A stretch of DNA of 64,000 nucleotides from Orbicella franksi. Lineage: Eukaryota. The notes below the pieces were generated by a model. The model was not told where the DNA came from, searched no databases, and was given only the letters and a program-made list of their open reading frames with translations. How positions within the stretch are numbered: position 1 is the stretch's first letter; every line of letters begins with the position of its first letter. This document shows positions 23,081 through 35,270 of the stretch, piece after piece. Location: the NCBI GenBank assembly GCA_964199315.1, contig OZ116707.1:4526001-4590000 (forward strand). Direction: 5' to 3'. The position numbers were made by a program, and so were the translations under genes.

Positions 23081-24620
23081 ATATGTGGTTTAGATTGTTT
23101 AATCTCATCCGAAATATGTTCCTAACTTTTGTTCTGCTAATGCCATAGCTTTGAAAGCATCTCCACCGATGATGATTTTTCATGTCAACATTTCCAGTGA
23201 AGTTTGCAGATTTCAAAAAATTAACAGTGGCATCAAAGTTGGTCGATTTAAAAAAATCAGCAGCCGTTTTGAATGTCATTTTTCCATTTTCGAAAGTGTA
23301 TGGATTGTCATAAACATCTGAACTGACATCATTCTGTTTTCCCTCGATTCCATAAACAATCAAATAACTACGAACCTGAGCTCAACTGTTTGCAATACCC
23401 TGACACCTTACATTACTGAAAATTCTTTGAGGAGCTGTTGAAGAATACTTAATGCATGTGAACGATGGATTGACTGTATCTTGAAAACAATTTTGTTGAT
23501 TGTTGACTAATATTCAGTTGAAGTGAAATAACTGATACTGTTACTTTGTCCATAACTGGTGGGAAGAATTCAACCACTTAAGTGTACTCACCATTTGGAA
23601 GCACAAAAATATTAAAACAAGTCTAGATGAATACCAGTTTTGTGCACCTTTTTCCATTCTAAAACTGTAAGCTTTTTTATTCACATCATGAGGTGAACCA
23701 GGAAAGTCCATGATACCATCAACAATGATGTTATTTTTGCTCAGTGACTCATTAACATCTTCCATAATGTATCGGAAAACATCTTTTTTACTGTCAGAAC
23801 TTGTTATATGTGACTCATTTATCTTTTTGGTAAAACTATCAGTCAGCGTTGTAATCATAGCCCCTTTGACTTGGTTTATGTATATAACATTAGTAGCTGA
23901 CAGCACGTGGGAGTCAGTGGATAAGTTGATAATTTTGTTGTTGTTCATGTCTAAATCAGCAGCCATTTTATTTGAACTATTGAGTAAAAGAGCATTACCA
24001 CCACCACTACTATTTGCTATTTCTGTATCGACATATCCTTTAGTCGCTCCATTACTGTTTTGTGTTGGTGTTGCTAAATTTACCAATTTATTATTCCCCA
24101 CATCTAAATCAACATTCATAGAAGTTCCGCCATTTATGTTCAATTTTTATTGTCTACTTGTTGTACTTTATCCGATAATTCAGACAATGCTTGTTTTGTT
24201 CCATCAATATTCGTTTGAAGAACCGAATCAGTGTTGTCAACAAAAGCCTCGTTGGTTTTATCGGCAGTAGCAATGTTTTGCTTACCAGTACCAACATAAG
24301 CCTTGCTGGTTTTATCAGCAGTAGCAATATCTTGTTTAGCATTTTCTGTATCAACATATTTTTTGGGAACAAAATCATTATCATCGTGTAACCCATCATA
24401 ATACAGCTTGAAATTGAACACAAAATAACACGAAAAGTTCTGCCGTTAATGTGCGTGCTGCTTGCAAGAAATGTTACAATGCAGGGACACTTCCGGTTTG
24501 ATTGTGAAATTTTATTCTGACAAGCATCACCTGCTGTTATTGTTAAAATAAATGACATATATCTTTGCTGGGAATTCACTCTACTTTTTTTATTGGTGAT
24601 CGGGCTTCTTCCACGGTAAA
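23037..24620 (-). pseudogene. Polintovirus/phage tail-fibre-like protein gene, frameshifted and interrupted upstream by Tc1
   Basis: Repeats of DVGNNKLVNLATPTQNSNGATKGYVD, DMNNNKIINLS and FVPKKYVD, plus KDVFRYIMEDVNES...NKKAY. Pieces lie in ORFs 24140-24421, 23541-24143 and 23037-23363. Confidence 0.75.
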
Positions 24621-24655
24621 AAAAATAAACTTACAAAGAATAATGCCTTTCTCAT

Positions 24656-25736
24656 TTAATACCTTGATCGACCTCCTTTTGAAGCTAAGACAGCATCAAT
24701 GCGCTTTAACATACTTTCTATAGTTTTATCTATAAGTTTGACATCAATGCTTTCTAGTGTACAAAGAACTCTTCTTTTAAACTGATCGAAAGTTTCCTGA
24801 GTAATGTTACACGACTCAGTCGTGTCGCAACATATGAAAAACATTCTCTATCAGGTTGAGGTCAGGGGATCGGGGAGGAATTTTGTGCAGTTTTCCTTCA
24901 ACCTCTTCCATAGCTTCGCAAGTAGGTCTGCTGTTTTGTGAGGGATCATTGTCCATGACAAAAAGATGTTGTCCGTTTGTTTTTGGGCCAGCAGCAGCAA
25001 AGCATAAATTGAAATGGTCCCTTATGAACTGTGAGAAGAACCGGCCATTCAGTTTTTCATAAGGTTCTCTTAAAATGACACCTTTGCCATGAGCAATTGC
25101 TACTAGTAAGTGAAGTCTTCGTCCACCAGCCAGATCTTTTGAGCCTTTTGCAGTTATTTGGAGTCCTTCGCCTTGTTTACACCATACTCTTGCCTTTGGT
25201 GATGCCGAGTTATTCAATGGATTTCGCTTATAAACAAAAGAAACTCCGTCCAGATAAAACGCGATGTCTTTTTTCCAGAAGTTCAGATTACTCAACAACT
25301 GACGTTTCATTTGCTTAGCGTATTTGAAACGTTGTCTTTTGTCTTTCTCATTCAGCATTCCTTTTTTTTGTGCCTGGAGAAAATAATAAGCATTCTCATT
25401 TAAACAACAGGAAAATGTTCTCTCACGTGCCAGCTGAAAGGTAAATCCACTTTCTGTCACTAACTGTTTCATGGTAAAGTTAACATTCATGGTTCGCATT
25501 CTATTCAGAGTTTGAAACAGGACTCGTTTGTCTCTTTCCGATATTTTCCTGGGCGGTCTTTTTCTTGGTTGAATCTGGTTTTTCGTATGTAGCAGCTGAT
25601 GACTGCATATTCACCAAGCGGAACTTTTCGATATTCCGCAGTTGTCTGCTATGACTTGAAATGATGCATTACATTCTCTCCTCAAGTACAAAGCGTAAGT
25701 TCTCTGCTTAGCTGTTATGATTTTGGAGAAAACCAT
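24656..25736 (-). mobile_element. Tc1-family DD34E transposase, near full length but disrupted
   Basis: ATG at 25736. HTH region, then FYLDGVSF, VMDNDPSQ...PRSPDLNLIENVF (34 residues between D and E), and C-terminal IESMLKRIDAVLASKGGRSRY*. One stop and one frameshift. TIRs not located. Confidence 0.9.
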
Positions 25737-27299: not shown

Positions 27300-27375
27300 A
27301 GATTACAATGCTGATGACAGAATTCATGATCAATAACAGGACAGACGCATGAAAAACTGATGTCAATTTGTTAAA
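27300..27375. repeat. Arm of a palindromic MITE
   Basis: GATCAATAACAGGACAGACGCATGAAAAACTGATGTCAATTTGTTAAA, recalled as an abundant coral repeat; not verified. Confidence 0.45.
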
Positions 27376-27456
27376 CATAAACACTGTATTTTCCTGGTTT
27401 ATGTTAGATCACTTTTTGTGACATTTTTCAATTCTGCACGAAGAAATTTGGTTTAA

Positions 27457-27765
27457 AGAAAAGCAAAGATGATACACCTCAGGAGGAAAGCAATGAGCGG
27501 TGATCCAGATAGTCCCACTGAAAATCCTAAACCTACATCAAAGTTGAGAGGAAAATTTCTTGATGATGATCTTGATCCAGATAGCCTTCCAGAAAATTCA
27601 GCAAACATAAAGAAAAAGACTCCCCACAAACCCCTACCTTCCTGGTGCAACAGTGATGAAGACCTGCAAATTATTGAGGTTAAGCGAAGCACATCTAAGG
27701 AGGAGGATTCACATTCCGATAGTGAGGAATCTACTTCAGAGCCCATGAAAAATCCCTTTAAAGGG
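27457..27765 (+). pseudogene. Isolated acidic/Ser-rich exon-like segment
   Basis: Open for 99 codons and ends at an AAAGG|GTAAGT donor. No family recognised. Confidence 0.3.
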
Positions 27766-28071: not shown

Positions 28072-29517
28072 TTATTGTTTGGCAGAGATCCATAGAAGAA
28101 ATCCAGTATTCATGTTTTTGTTTTCTAAAATTAACCTCTGAAGGACTAGTTTGGTGGACAAAGAACCACATGAAAGGATTCCTTGGTGTTTTGAACTATA
28201 TTCCACATCTACATCAGCGTCATAGATCTCAAGCCTACTTGGTAACTCATTAATTGTGGGCTGGATACTGATGTCAAGGTTTTCTTTGTAAAATATATTT
28301 CCATGTTCAACAACAGCTTCTAATGTAACTGACTTCCAATTACTACATGGTTTGATAATTGAAAAACAGATACAATAAAAACATATGGCACAGTTCTTTT
28401 TTGCATTAGTTTCCATAGTAACATCTGCATTAACTGCAGCTGTTTGACAGGTCACATTTTGATCATTGGATGAGAATGGCTCATTGTCATTATGAACAAC
28501 TTCATTTTCTGATACAGAAATGTGTAAACCTTTAAGCTCAAATATGGCATCAACAGTATATGAAGTCTGAAAGTATTCCACTAATTTATTCATTCCCTGG
28601 GCATGCAACAATACACATGTTCCTTGAAGATGGGCCATACCAAATGAATCTCTAGCATGGGAATCAAATACTTTAAATGTACCATCTAAAGTATGATAAA
28701 TTGCTACAGTAGTATTCTCTATTGTCAACAGGACTGAGTTATAGGTTTCTGCTAGTAAAGTGTGCAAAGCCCTATCCAGGGGCATGGAGTAAGGAAAGTC
28801 TTCAATTGAATAATTGCTGTTTGCATGTAGCCTGCAAGTATAACTTTCACTATACTGCAGCTTGTAATTAGTGTCGAACACTGTAATCATTGTTGGTAAC
28901 TCTGTTAACATCAAAAAAGAGTTTCTGGATATTCTTGATAGACTAGAATACAGTTCATTACCAATGTTCATAATTTCAACCAAGTCTTCTGCAGAAGTAA
29001 TTGAATTCTTGTTGTTATATATTAGACTACATAAAGACATGGCTACACATTGCTGTCCAGCATTTTGACCAAACACTGCAACATTACCTTGACAATATGG
29101 TGCATGGAGTGTTTGAGAAGGAACAACTGAAACTGGCCCTGGATTTTTTTCTATATCCATACAAAGGCTTGATTGGCAATAGTTGACTCTGTGATTCAAA
29201 TTCTTATAAACCCGTGATTCTGTTGAAATATCTTTACTTGATGCATTTGGAAATCTACCGTTTCCTTTCAGCTTAAACTTCAGGTTAGCAGTCTTACGAT
29301 TTCCTCTGCGTGATGCTACAGCAAGATGAGATTTCATTCCCACGGAGAAAACTCGCTTTTTTCTTAGTTTAACCTTATGAGAAGATCTGCATTGAACGGT
29401 GTTATAACTGTAATCAACAGTTGAACGAGCACTTCTAAATGTAGTATAAAGATGAATTCGAGATGACCGTGGTACATTCCTGATAATGTGTTTTTTTCCT
29501 GCTTTTTTGTAGAACAC
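28072..29517 (-). CDS. 481-aa ORF: basic leader, 2A-like StopGo motif, peptidase C76 (herpes tegument USP)-like deubiquitinase, and the start of a second degenerate C76-like module; probably a Helitron2/Helentron 5' ORF, 3'-truncated
   Basis: DIEKNPGP at 29157-29134, then YCQGN...GQQCVAMS (oxyanion Gln, catalytic Cys) and FKVFDSHAR (Asp-His). The second module begins NCAICFYCICFS...W....L..V...GN..Y. Confidence 0.75.
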   Translation of the reverse strand: MFYKKAGKKHIIRNVPRSSRIHLYTTFRSARSTVDYSYNTVQCRSSHKVKLRKKRVFSVGMKSHLAVASRRGNRKTANLKFKLKGNGRFPNASSKDISTESRVYKNLNHRVNYCQSSLCMDIEKNPGPVSVVPSQTLHAPYCQGNVAVFGQNAGQQCVAMSLCSLIYNNKNSITSAEDLVEIMNIGNELYSSLSRISRNSFLMLTELPTMITVFDTNYKLQYSESYTCRLHANSNYSIEDFPYSMPLDRALHTLLAETYNSVLLTIENTTVAIYHTLDGTFKVFDSHARDSFGMAHLQGTCVLLHAQGMNKLVEYFQTSYTVDAIFELKGLHISVSENEVVHNDNEPFSSNDQNVTCQTAAVNADVTMETNAKKNCAICFYCICFSIIKPCSNWKSVTLEAVVEHGNIFYKENLDISIQPTINELPSRLEIYDADVDVEYSSKHQGILSCGSLSTKLVLQRLILENKNMNTGFLLWISAKQ

Positions 29518-30142
29518 GAGTAAGCCGTTTCACTGAAATTCTGCTTGGTTCACGATCACATCGAACTATATGGCAGCTAGCCTTAACACGATGATAATAA
29601 ATAAACTCAGCATATTGAGATCTACAGTCCTTTATTGAAATAGACTTGTCTTTGCCAAGTTCTGAGCAAGAATAATTACGGTCATTATTCACTTCTAACT
29701 TGTTTACATAGGAATTCTGGCATTCAGGTTCTGAGTGGTACATTTTAGTGCAATCGATTTTTGCGCAGGCATTCAGTGCACTTTCATAAGTTTGGCATTC
29801 AAGGTACCTCACTGGCATTCAACTTTTATTTGTATTCGGCCGATATGAGGGCTAGAATGTTGCAGTGTTTGAGAAAAGCTACAGCACAACTCAAAATCAT
29901 AACAAAGAAAACACAACACTTGAGCTTACCTCTACAAAAGTGTTCGCTCGCCAGTAAACAGTATTCCACCGATCTTTTCCACCAGTACTTTTCCACAAGT
30001 TTTTCCACGAGCGTGGCCTGTCACATTGAGCACGTGATAGGTCCGTGGAAAAGCTCGCCAGCAAAGCGCCCTGGGATTACGTCACACTATTGCGCAAGAA
30101 TGCAGAATTCTGGCAACGACTACGGATCAAGCCGAATTTTCA

Positions 30143-30183
30143 ACTCCTGCCCTGGCCCTGAGGGCCTGGGCCGGAGTAATAAT
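30143..30183 (-). other. GC-rich hairpin with TTATTACTCCGG end; putative Helitron2 5' terminus
   Basis: ACTCCTGCCCTGGCCC-TGA-GGGCCTGGGCCGGAGT forms a 16-bp stem with 2 mismatches, about 650 bp upstream of the C76 ORF. Confidence 0.5.
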
Positions 30184-30412: not shown

Positions 30413-30449
30413 AAACCTTTTTGCTATAGTGTAATTTACATTGATTGCA

Positions 30450-30670
30450 GGAGAAGGCACAGATGTATGGTATTGACTGGAATGGGCCCATTTCTGAAGA
30501 CAACAGTGAAACTATCCAAGTTCCAGAAATACCATGTCCTCTTGCAGATAATCACTTGCAAGATCTTAGGGAAAATATCAACCCACTTAGAAACAGTTTC
30601 TTCCGTGGTGTGGATATTTATCTTGAGACAGTTGAGTTCCTTGAGGAAAGAACAAGAAACAACATGAGTT
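30450..30670 (+). mobile_element. C-terminal exon of an IS3EU/integrase-core-type transposase
   Basis: After a GCAG acceptor: MYGIDWNGP...VPEIPCPL...INPL...GVDIYLETVEFL, recalled as the C-terminus of these transposases. The DDE core is absent. Confidence 0.55.
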
Positions 30671-32199
30671 GCAATGTTCAAGCACAAAACCTGGGCAATA
30701 TAGCTATAACGGAAGCAAACTGCATGCCTCCTGGTTCTGGATCTGGTGTGGACCTGAACAACACAATTCCAAGAACCCAATTCAGTGCATTGGTTTTAGC
30801 AGATCAACCACCTGGGCACCCACCTGCAGCATACTTTGATCAATGATTTGTTTATTGAACTGTTCACTTGTGTTTTTGTGACACACAGTTTTGTTTGGTT
30901 ATTCTAAATGTCTGCATTTCCAATTTCTCATTTTAAGGATTGTTATATAAAAGGTCCAGAATAACAAATAAAAGTTTGGAAGTGAATTGTTCTCTTTACT
31001 GAACCTGATTGTTAGTTTTCCTCATGAAAATAATGAGAAGAGAAGCAACACAATAATGAAACTTTTTATTTTCATAAGATCTGGGTTTTCGACAAAAGTA
31101 ACTATTACAGATTCTAGCGTGTAATATAAAGGAACTCACTCAATGTTTCAGAAATCTACCTTATATTATTCAAGATAAAATGAAAATGAAAATGAATCCA
31201 TTCACATGCTAAACAATGAAACACAAGGTAGGATTTACCCTGGCTGCACAATTCCCATACATGCACTACCACAATTTTTTTTGTTAACAGCGAACAGTCA
31301 CTGATCATTAGTGTGGAAACTGCTCATCTTACCATCATTTATGGATTGCCTCCTGTACACAGGAGGCAAATCAGTATCTGACTCTTCAGAACAACTAAAA
31401 AAGTGAAATAGACTGTGTTAATGAACCATATACTTATGCCCATGTGCAAGCTTAAAAGGAATACTTTTGTGAAAAGAAAATATGTTGAAAACTGTAGAAA
31501 TGAACTCAAGTTAATCTGAATATCTAGTAACAGAAATTTTTTCATAATGCACACAGTAATCACTGAGTCATTTATTTTAAGCCAGTGTCTTACTAGAACA
31601 GACCAACAGCAAATGCACCACTTGTGTTCATAGCATTTTGCTATTACAAACAATACCATGTCAGTGAATGTCGATCGTGATGAACTGATGTAATATATTT
31701 CACAACAGAAAAGGTACTCTACTATTATTATAACTGCTTATAATTTTTGGAAAAAAATAATGGAGTTTATTTACAATGTTCTTGTTTTTCAGGTGCTACA
31801 ACAGCAAAGTTTCTGATGTCAACTTCACTAGAAAAAAGAGATATTTCGTTTAAAAGTTTAAAAATAATTTAATCCATGTTGAGAACCTTTTACATACAAA
31901 TTATAACAGTCTCCCAAAATAAGAAACTATTTCTCAGAAAATACTTCTGACAATAAATACATGTACATGCAACTCTTTAATTTTAACTGTTATCACTACA
32001 CAAGAAAACTGTAATAAATATGGAAAAAATAAATTATGAACATGTAACTTACAACACAAGATTGTTATTATATGTTCATCACTAAAGTCAACCTCCAAGT
32101 TTGAATTTAGCAGAATTATACAGTAGATGTATAAGGTAGTTTCATTTTCATCCCTAGTTCAAACACTAGTGGTCATCGATGACTTCAGATGGTTAAATT

Positions 32200-33363: not shown

Positions 33364-35118
33364 GTTGTGATTGGCATTTCTCCATGATCACGTTATGTAT
33401 TCGCTCTTTACAGAATAAATTAGTGTATGTTTGGATTCACTTGAGGCTGGTCTGCACATTTGGCAATGAGACATTTCATTCTGGATTCGTACAGGAATGG
33501 CAACCTACGGAAAAATAGGAGAATTCAAAGAATCAGAGGAATCATGGACCCAGTGGGTGGAGTGGTTGGAACAGTATTTCCTAGCGAATGAGGCGGAAGA
33601 TGTGGCGAAACGTCGAGCAATTCTACTCAGTGTTTGCAGGAGTAAAACGTACCCACTTACAAGGGATTTACTTCAACCAGCGAAGCCAGTGGAAACAACT
33701 TTTAAGAAGATTGTACACACACTTCAGAAGCACTTTTCACCGAAGCCAAATGAGATAGTGGAGCATTGTAAAGTTCATAGCCGAAATCAAAACAAAGACA
33801 AAGGAGTTGCGGCATACATGGCAGAATTGCGTAAGCTAACCAAACATTGTAACTTTGGCGAAACATTACCAGAAATGCTATGAGATTGGTTGGTCTGCGG
33901 TATAAATAATAAGAAAATCCAGTGGCAATTACTGGCGGAATGAGAGTTGACGCTCAAGAAGGCTGAGGAGATTGCTTTGGGAGAAGAGTTAGCAGCAAAG
34001 CACATGGTTGGTATTCAGTCTGACACGACCCCCAGCAGCGTTAATCAGGTCGACGCTTGAGACAAGAAGGGAATTAAAGAGCGCCATCCAGATTCAGAGT
34101 GTTACCGTTGTGGGGAGAAACATAAAGCTTCAGCCTGTCGATTTAAAGGTCCTCAGTGTTTTAAATGTGGACAACGAGGGCACATAGCCAAAGAGTCGTG
34201 GTGAAAAAAGGGAGGAGAAAAAGATGGGCAAAGGAATTGATTCTGGAACACGGGAAGGTAAACATACTGGTTCACAAGACAGCAAGCCAAAAGGGGAAGA
34301 AGAAGCAACCTACACATTTTGTTTCCGGGGAAGAAGGTGTTTATGCAGCAACAATGTACCACATTCGGAGACAAAGCAAACCCAAGGCATTCAAAGGGAC
34401 TGAGGAACTTTGTGGTGAACCACACAAATTGGACATAGACACTAGTGTGACCAGAACCATGTTGAATGAAGAAACGTACAACAAATTATGTGACAAATTG
34501 GAATTGAAGAGTTTCAAAGGCCGCATTAAGCACATACACAGGAGAGAAAATACCGGTGTCGGGTGAAGTACTGATTCCTGTCAAGTACCAGAATCGACCG
34601 CATAATTTACCAGGCATGGTGTTGAACAGTCCTGGACCCGATTTACTTGGATGGGACTGGCTTCAAGTGATTAAGCTTAACTGGAACAGTATTTTTAACA
34701 TCCAGGAGGGCAACCCTCAGCTGCAGAAGATCCTAGATGCACACAAGGACGTTTTTGGCAAAGGACTGGGTACACTGAAGGGCACAGAAGCCAAAATCTA
34801 TGTTGACCTAAGTGCTCTACCCAATGTCAGGAAGCCTTGCCCTGTGCCGTATGCACTTAAAGCGAAAGTCGAAAAGGAACTGGATCAATTGCAGAGCAAA
34901 AGCATAATATCTCCGGTAGTGTTCACAGAGTGGGCGGCACCTATAGTTCCAGTGGTGAAACAAGACGGATCAGTGGGTATTTGTGGTGACTATAAGTGTA
35001 CTGTTAACCAAGTCTCAAAGTTGGATAATTATCCAATCCCCAAGACTGAGGACTTGCTTGCCACACTAGGAAAAGGAAATAAATTCACCAAGCTGGATAT
35101 GTCACAGGCATACCAATC
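33364..35118 (+). mobile_element. Gypsy (Ty3) LTR retrotransposon, 5' part: short LTR remnant, PBS, gag, protease, truncated RT
   Basis: TG-initial LTR-like segment and PBS-like TGGCAATGAG at about 33461. Gag MATYGKIGEF...; knuckles CYRCGEKH and CFKCGQRGHIAKE; protease-like DTSVT; RT EWAAPIVPVVKQDGSVGICGDYK...KLDMSQAYQ. Many stops. Confidence 0.92.
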
Positions 35119-35164
35119 ACCATATACAAAAAACAAAGCACCAAAAAACATGGTCAGTAGAAGA

Positions 35165-35270
35165 AAAAGTTATAGTTTGGTTACCTTTTAATCCTGGGTT
35201 AGCGTTAACCGGCTTCCGAACAATCCTGCCCTGTTTTCAACAAGTTAACCTGACATGAGCGGAACATTAA
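35165..35270. repeat. MITE fragment (TAACC/GGTTA motif family)
   Basis: CCTGGGTTAGCGTTAACCGGCTTCCGAACAA, recalled as a Harbinger-like MITE end. Confidence 0.35.

Follow-up and report, generated by a model that had tools for sequence, protein, structure and literature searches.

A 2A-like motif at the junction of leader and deubiquitinase in a broken Helentron fragment of Orbicella franksi

Introduction

Peptides of the 2A (StopGo) type have been described in RNA viruses and retroelements, and also in a few marine genes. A peptide of this form, DIEKNPGP, is encoded on the minus strand of a 64,000-nucleotide stretch of the Orbicella franksi genome (assembly GCA_964199315.1, contig OZ116707.1, positions 4,526,001 to 4,590,000), here called the window, to which all coordinates refer. 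It stands before a domain resembling herpesviral tegument deubiquitinases, and a preliminary description, made from the letters alone, proposed that skipping at the motif would release a deubiquitinase (DUB)-bearing polyprotein from a basic leader, in what was probably a rolling-circle element. The locus raises two questions: what kind of element carries this frame, and does the motif act on the ribosome? We approached them through sister copies and intact relatives in the same genome, database homologues, RNA reads and published functional data; the cited papers are quoted from the accessible parts of their text and tables.

Results

The window locus is a broken 5' piece of a rolling-circle DNA transposon, a Helentron (HLE2); its features are collected in Table 1. 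Four sister copies with 95-98% identity have a common 5' end at 30180-30183; they are dispersed copies with internal deletions that share one 3' segment, which tblastn and blastn did not detect in the window. The 3' segment of the family is also found at a fifth place (contig C10, 8.50 Mb), without a RepHel frame in its vicinity. The 3' part of the element (Rep, helicase, endonuclease and 3' terminus) is missing from the window copy, and an intact relative of 2549 aa aligns to the window over its residues 71-517 only. Position 28083 is also a breakpoint in contigs of other sequencing runs, one contig running on past it. With regard to the termini, the 5' hairpin has a folding energy of -16.5 kcal/mol (DNA parameters, without shuffle control), and its 9-bp core recurs in inverted orientation near the 3' end of both sisters examined (C9 and C13), followed by a stem-loop. 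This subterminal repeat core is shorter than the typical 11-15 bp, and the window holds the 5' one only. Helentrons insert between T and T without target duplication; the copy ends here are T/A-rich, and the common 3' end of the sisters closes in TT. The termini of two intact, more distant elements yielded only short inverted repeats at chance level.

Table 1. Coordinates of the features of the Helentron fragment in the window
Feature	Position	Strand	Basis or remark
Helentron (HLE2) 5' fragment	28083..30183	-	sister copies; break at 28083
First half of degenerate second VTD, cut by 3' break	28084..28398	-	profile alignment
VTD (peptidase C76-type) deubiquitinase domain	28519..29109	-	Gln, Cys, Asp-x-His intact
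2A/StopGo-like octamer DIEKNPGP, predicted skip Gly131/Pro132	29134..29157	-	frame reading
First half of leader frame from ATG 29818	29435..29818	-	DREPSR block at 29540-29557
17-nt deletion relative to sisters	29493..29494	-	frameshift within leader; sister alignment
Likely first non-coding exon of the family	29928..29980	-	start near 29980, splice donor 29928
5' hairpin including 5' subterminal inverted repeat	30144..30177	-	9-bp core 30169-30177

The minus-strand frame at 28075-29529 is open for 485 codons from stop to stop, or for 481 codons from the start chosen in the preliminary description; however, it is not a gene. The frame is open because the window copy lacks 17 nt that are found in all four sisters, and it ends at the break at 28083. 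It has no start codon at its 5' end, the first Met being codon 65. The length given earlier was correct, whereas the picture of an intact unit in a decayed neighbourhood was not, because the leader is frameshifted, the start is missing and the 3' side is cut. The longer form, without the 17-nt deletion, is present in contigs of run X1, and the deletion may be private to the window copy or an assembly error. The window copy is a dead fragment that cannot transpose on its own.

Intact relatives, of 2549 and 2924 codons, show the order basic leader, DxExNPGP, VTD, degenerate VTD or repeats, DUF6570, Rep, PIF1 helicase and an endonuclease-like tail. Rep, PIF1 helicase and DUF6570 stand in one frame in these relatives and are absent from the truncated window copy; in P0127, with 79% identity to the window frame, DUF6570 and Rep follow downstream. 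The Helitron Rep family was found in all 28 long database homologues, which, together with the intact copies in the same genome, bears out the assignment to a rolling-circle element. The Rep signature is RGSPH in 26 of these 28 and RGLPH in none; Helentrons are recognised by a Ser between the Gly and the Pro before the Rep His, where Helitrons have Leu (PMC4067079). Pfam endonuclease families (C-terminal APE) were detected in 4 of the 28 long VTD homologues and in three intact OTU-type copies, while the intact VTD copy L031 has an SDH-type motif at its end, by eye, and no Pfam match there at E 0.001. A search for motif plus VTD in the 497-Mb genome gave 148 matches among the 150 scored of 170 candidates, and the named database homologues are anthozoan. 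It had been suggested that full-length copies be sought and their linkage to a Rep-helicase be checked; intact copies do exist, in the order leader, motif, DUB, RepHel and APE. As a separate observation, L045, L047 and L070 (C6 25.71 Mb) make up a young VTD-RepHel family that has no in-frame leader and a Met at codon 3; a partial duplicate of the VTD start lies just upstream. The family may be spliced, and a separate frame of 346 codons follows the helicase.

The domain downstream of the octamer carries Gln147, Cys161, Asp289 and His291 in the herpes-tegument order. The window frame matches Pfam Herpes_teg_N with E 3.7e-10 and 40.2 bits (cut-off 25), and its best match among solved structures is PDB 8ADD, the VTD of a zebrafish Helitron (E 8.6e-8), with which Cys161, Asp289 and His291 align; Cys and Asp-x-His form the VTD triad as defined in PMC9741609. 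An AlphaFold model of P0002, a relative with 79-81% identity (121-row alignment, mean pLDDT 69, high across the VTD), matched 8ADD with E 3.5e-13 and a target TM of 0.76, and M48 (2J7Q) with E 2.5e-10. The C76-type identity that had been read from the order of the residues is upheld by the Pfam score, the 8ADD match and the M48-like fold of the relative. By analogy with the zebrafish Helitron VTDs, for which cleavage of ubiquitin has been demonstrated (PMC9741609), the VTD is predicted to be active as a deubiquitinase. A degenerate second module after the first had been noticed as well, and it was recovered as a profile match to the first VTD (E 3e-4 over 111 columns, with a probability of only 39%; E 0.65 for the Rep control). 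The motif (F/Y)D(S/A/P)H is absent from this module in the five readable of six intact relatives, although the scan of 420 residues showed an isolated D-x-H at another place in two of them; the second VTD is probably inactive.

The octamer has the core D(V/I)ExNPG/P. The window contains its pattern a single time, and none of 200 base-shuffled windows contains it. Gln147 lies 15 codons past the final Pro of the octamer; the preliminary description put the module about 14 codons after the motif. It should be noted that the preliminary description regarded the Met before the Asp, in place of the usual Gly, as a possible cause of weak skipping. This Met is found in the window copy only; all four sisters have Thr, and Gly precedes the Asp in just 24% of 83 distinct homologous peptides, which rules the Met out as a property of the family. 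Upstream of the octamer, the conserved positions are Y-24, K-23, N-20, H-19, N-16 and L-10 (YKxxNHxxN..L). The window peptide has one Leu within -19 to -10 and no Trp, and thus neither the Leu-rich tract of class A nor the Trp-bearing tract of class B. In the model of P0002, the octamer falls in a low-confidence, unstructured region.

Conservation of the motif was assessed in several ways. Among the best 30 VTD loci of the genome, 20 have the exact octamer and 6 a one-residue variant. Of the 120 listed among 173 database matches, 91 aligned across the Cys and 82 had at least 45 residues upstream; 72 of these 82 retain the octamer, as do 26 of the 28 long homologues; these rates are biased upward, because both queries contained the motif. 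Anchoring on Rep instead, we found the exact motif on the same strand, at most 5 kb upstream, at 21 of 58 Rep loci, compared to none in each of three control orientations and approximately 0.06 expected. The 58 loci are those on contigs C1-C7, from 117 Rep matches, with 6 duplicate pieces merged, and the motif places were those among the first 100 of the 226 listed; the loci are not independent, because they are copies of fewer families. NPGP, the conservation of which in homologues was to be checked, is kept in most of them. Position x is occupied by K, T, V, E, S or L, and synonymous codons vary within the octamer, as judged by eye and without formal tally; therefore, selection appears to act on the octamer at the level of the peptide. 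Twenty further motif places, 19 of them without a Rep link, were inspected: four run straight into an APE-like motif, three more are retrotransposon-like by eye, and most of the others are decayed Helentron-type leaders. Judged in the same manner, L074, L075, L077, L078, L080, L086 and L088 are likely to be APE-type non-LTR retrotransposons with 2A-like motifs.

The motif is tied to the junction of leader and DUB rather than to the VTD, a point that the preliminary description missed and that emerges from comparing the families. The ATG at 29818 is in frame with the octamer in three of the four sisters, 226 codons upstream of it. A leader block consisting of DREPSR, a basic helix and VPxSS is common to VTD and OTU families, in keeping with the basic leader proposed earlier, and a second leader type likewise occurs with both DUBs. 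In many motif-bearing families, it is OTU, not VTD, that comes straight after the motif; these are unrelated DUB folds, and they are interspersed on the Rep tree. At L073, the degenerate VTD of the window family recurs behind a DREPSR leader, the 2A-like motif and an OTU, which suggests a swap of the DUB directly behind the motif. The leader gave no Pfam match, and a fold search with the whole P0002 model returned only VTD structures at E < 0.001; within the leader, only a three-helix block (residues 78-125) is predicted with confidence. An HLE2 copy at L056:3672-7994, on the minus strand, has two tandem 2A-OTU units in one frame, with a different, hydrophobic leader type.

In a Rep tree of 24 rows, 17 motif-bearing rows are separated from 7 without the motif, both groups at 100/100; this clean split may have an exception, because L056, with a short alignment, was left out. 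The DREPSR block is also present in the sister clade, where the leader that holds it ends in LxGG in two OTU families; LxGG stands at the corresponding position in a third OTU family (L057), which has a frameshift further upstream. Nineteen database matches were available for this clade, five without the Cys motif, five short and nine with at least 60 residues before the Cys motif. Of these nine, eight have LxGG 35-39 residues upstream of the OTU Cys motif and none has a 2A-like motif; four of the five short ones also show LxGG. For comparison, LxGG occurs in 32 of 2324 background windows of 50 aa, and near the motif in none of 80 proteins of the 2A clade. The exceptions at the site are LSGD in L100 (DREPSR-OTU) and LSCG in P0162. 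The LxGG set of the HLE2 sister clade comprises L055, L057, L058, L069, L097-L099 and P0150-P0164. A VTD family of the same clade begins its domain at codon 3 of the frame, and no motif was found in any frame within approximately 1.2 kb upstream. All three arrangements (2A, LxGG and none) therefore place the DUB at the predicted N-terminus of the transposase. The position of LxGG suggests a ubiquitin-tail-like candidate site of self-cleavage at the same junction as the 2A-like motif, and the two may represent two routes to one cut.

RNA reads bear on how the family is expressed. In polyA run X23, molecule ends fall at 29978-29980, and 68 reads depart from the sequence at 29928. Two polyA runs of one study gave 85 and 58 reads across the junction of this donor with an acceptor in the 3' segment of the sisters. 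The whole leader-2A-VTD region is removed by splicing from most transcripts of the family in these two runs; read depth is about 1-12 over the coding part versus up to about 140 in the 3' exon, in which the only frame is a short one of about 65 codons. The reads carry sister-type letters and hence are not attributable to the window copy. Since the short 5' exon (window 29928-29980; L041:799) is spliced to the 3' segment, leader, 2A-like motif and VTD lie in an intron of the main transcript. RepHel would likewise be intronic in intact copies, and control of transposase expression by splicing is possible. Runs X21 and X22, from another study, are blank on the element and constitute no test, and contig-only RNA runs cannot show transcription.

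The functional data closest to this family come from a 2026 preprint (PMC13405545), in which 20-mers were screened in HEK293T cells. Five peptides of the clade to which the window family belongs were found in its table media-7.csv, three of them identical to 20-mers in homologues P0075, P0093 and P0123; four were classified as non-skipping, one as fall-off only and none as skipping. Sixteen more comprise 12 non-skipping, three fall-off and one skipping peptide; these were assigned to other Helentron families by resemblance, and the library also held engineered variants that are indistinguishable in the table. One row, for an Acropora protein in which the motif precedes a VTD, is annotated only as a helicase and scored as fall-off; the word "helitron" is absent from the available text and four supplementary tables. 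The preprint links activity to at least three Leu within -19 to -10. It should be noted that its classes derive from an SVM with 86% training accuracy, that the ribosomes are human, and that the 20-residue insert omits the conserved YKxxN at -24 to -20. Full activity of the FMDV 2A needs more than 30 aa, and some viral upstream motifs perform poorly with mammalian ribosomes (PMC12846837). Moreover, the octamer alone is insufficient for activity, and even a canonical motif may have almost no activity, as in CR1 elements (PMC3708506). Because none of the five 20-mers from relatives skipped, we refer to the window motif as 2A-like and not as an active 2A; any recoding of the ribosome at the motif of this family would probably be partial.

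The surroundings of the fragment contain remnants of several kinds. Exon-like pieces with splice signals flank it on the plus strand, at 27457-27765 and 30445-30846; they have no Pfam match and no RNA coverage in the runs examined, and possibly belong to another element whose intron holds the fragment. A Tc1-type DDE_3 transposase remnant lies at 24816-25610 on the minus strand (Pfam E 4.7e-12), and decayed frames resembling gag, protease and RT of an LTR retrotransposon, by eye, at 33470-35191 on the plus strand, with a weak DUF7083 match below the cut-off. The longest frame of the window, of 584 codons, occupies 52965-54719 on the plus strand and matches DUF7869 (Pfam E 1.3e-21). At 27305-27380 there is a short, MITE-like repeat of very high copy number, with inverted halves and a contig depth of hundreds of thousands. 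Minus-strand frames at 23541-24630 carry repeats of the NxxDLDxxNNKxxNL and NxATKxYVD types, without a Pfam match, which we take to resemble fibre-like proteins of Polinton-type elements.

Discussion

The reading that we favour, with confidence only a little better than even, is that the locus is a broken 5' Helentron fragment of a family in whose intact members DxExNPGP likely serves as a site of partial recoding. Partial recoding is favoured because the screen was mostly negative, but its classifier is imperfect, the insert was short and FMDV 2A needs more than 30 aa (PMC13405545, PMC12846837). At DxExNPGP, some ribosomes would skip and some would fall off; this would free a deubiquitinase-Rep-helicase-endonuclease protein from the basic leader and, at the same time, limit its amount. 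In the sister clade, the LxGG may be cut by the DUB of the element itself. The common outcome would be a transposase that starts with its DUB, and the VTD may then shield the transposase from ubiquitin-dependent degradation, as was proposed in PMC9741609.

A wider formulation, which we hold tentatively and with the chances somewhat against it, is that Helentrons process their transposase like a viral polyprotein: the leader would be removed either by a new leucine-poor StopGo subclass, which depends on cnidarian ribosomes or on a context longer than 20 residues, or by the DUB at a ubiquitin-mimicking LxGG, the two being interchangeable at one junction. Viral papain-like protease/DUBs that process their own polyprotein are exemplified by TYMV PRO/DUB and by coronavirus PLpro (LXGG). 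The LxGG clade resembles these in having a DUB beside a ubiquitin-tail-like site in its own polyprotein, with self-cleavage being putative here; no report of self-cleavage by a Helentron OTU or VTD was found in the literature searched.

Efficient classical StopGo in the native host, with near-complete release of the DUB-RepHel protein, was the proposal of the preliminary description, and we consider it unlikely. The octamer is perfect and canonical in most families, the 20-mers in the screen did not extend to the conserved upstream block, a skipping score was given to one peptide similar to a site of an OTU family (PMC13405545), and viral upstream motifs that function poorly on mammalian ribosomes offer a precedent (PMC12846837). 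However, skipping was scored for none of the five clade peptides and for only one of the 16 peptides from other families, and the upstream tract is leucine-poor.

Equally improbable is a motif that no longer acts on the ribosome and is kept as a protease site, or as a structural or binding linker, at the junction of leader and DUB. The mostly non-skipping scores would agree with this, and a proteolytic route is made plausible by the LxGG that the sister clade has at this position. Nevertheless, the exact D(V/I)ExNPGP with a free x is the signature of StopGo, DUBs read ubiquitin-like GG tails and not NPG/P, and the octamer falls in a low-confidence, unstructured region of the model.

There is very little probability left for a domesticated host gene encoding a stand-alone deubiquitinase. 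The long frame and the intact catalytic residues would fit one, and domesticated VTD genes exist in cnidarians (PMC9741609); this interpretation is already largely refuted by the frameshift in the leader, the 3' break inside the second module, the transposon 5' terminus, the dispersed sisters with 95-98% identity and RNA reads with sister-type letters. A fragment of an endogenous herpesvirus tegument gene, which the Herpes_teg_N match and the fold of M48 might call to mind, has a negligible chance and is refuted by the linkage to RepHel (all 28 long homologues are RepHel proteins); the best structural match is a Helitron VTD, the termini are of Helentron type, and the 28 window frames scanned in Pfam include no viral structural gene.

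The closest known elements are the VTD Helentrons, or HLE2 subgroup b, including zebrafish DrT1 and DrT2 (PMC9741609, PMC11417382, PMC4067079). Like them, the window family has a VTD or OTU N-terminal to DUF6570, Rep, PIF1 and APE in one frame, the RGSPH signature, subterminal inverted repeats, a 3' stem-loop and non-autonomous deletion derivatives; its sisters match the Helentron/HINE anatomy of PMC4067079. Both VTDs of DrT1 are active, whereas the second VTD of the window family is degenerate. Helentron VTDs, cnidarian ones included, and DUB activity in zebrafish have already been published (PMC9741609, PMC11417382). In APE-type non-LTR retrotransposons (L1Tc, Ingi, CR1, L2, Crack), 2A-like sequences with activity ranging from good to none (PMC3708506) similarly place D(V/I)ExNPGP close to the N-terminal end of the main enzyme frame, and such 2A-bearing elements likewise occur in the same genome. 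In contrast to them, the window family is a rolling-circle DNA transposon in which the motif precedes a DUB, not an APE, with a longer leader (226 aa) and a leucine-poor upstream tract. With viral class A StopGo/2A (PMC12846837, PMC12338488), it has in common a canonical octamer between two modules of one frame; however, its YKxxNHxxN..L tract belongs neither to the Leu-rich class A nor to the Trp-bearing class B, and activity is putative.

What is known is the VTD-Helentron; what is new is the 2A-like junction, its placement irrespective of the DUB and the LxGG counterpart. "NPGP" is absent from the main text of PMC9741609, and neither a 2A-like motif nor a DREPSR leader nor an LxGG site is mentioned in the available parts of PMC11417382 and PMC4067079. 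PMC12338488, in its accessible portion, lists similar coral peptides without naming Helitrons. We found no report of a 2A-like or StopGo motif in Helitrons in the literature covered, which lay outside subscription journals and theses, and none of StopGo in a DNA transposon, although the supplements of bioRxiv 10.64898/2026.09.24.754024 could hold such cases.

If the proposed processing is true, the DUBs of these transposons gain a second job, i.e., self-processing, and Helentrons have a testable way to dose their transposase. It would also explain the coral 2A-like peptides in screening tables, which have been unrecognised as parts of Helitrons. Should the longer YKxxNH context rescue activity, the family would provide a new upstream class of StopGo peptide.
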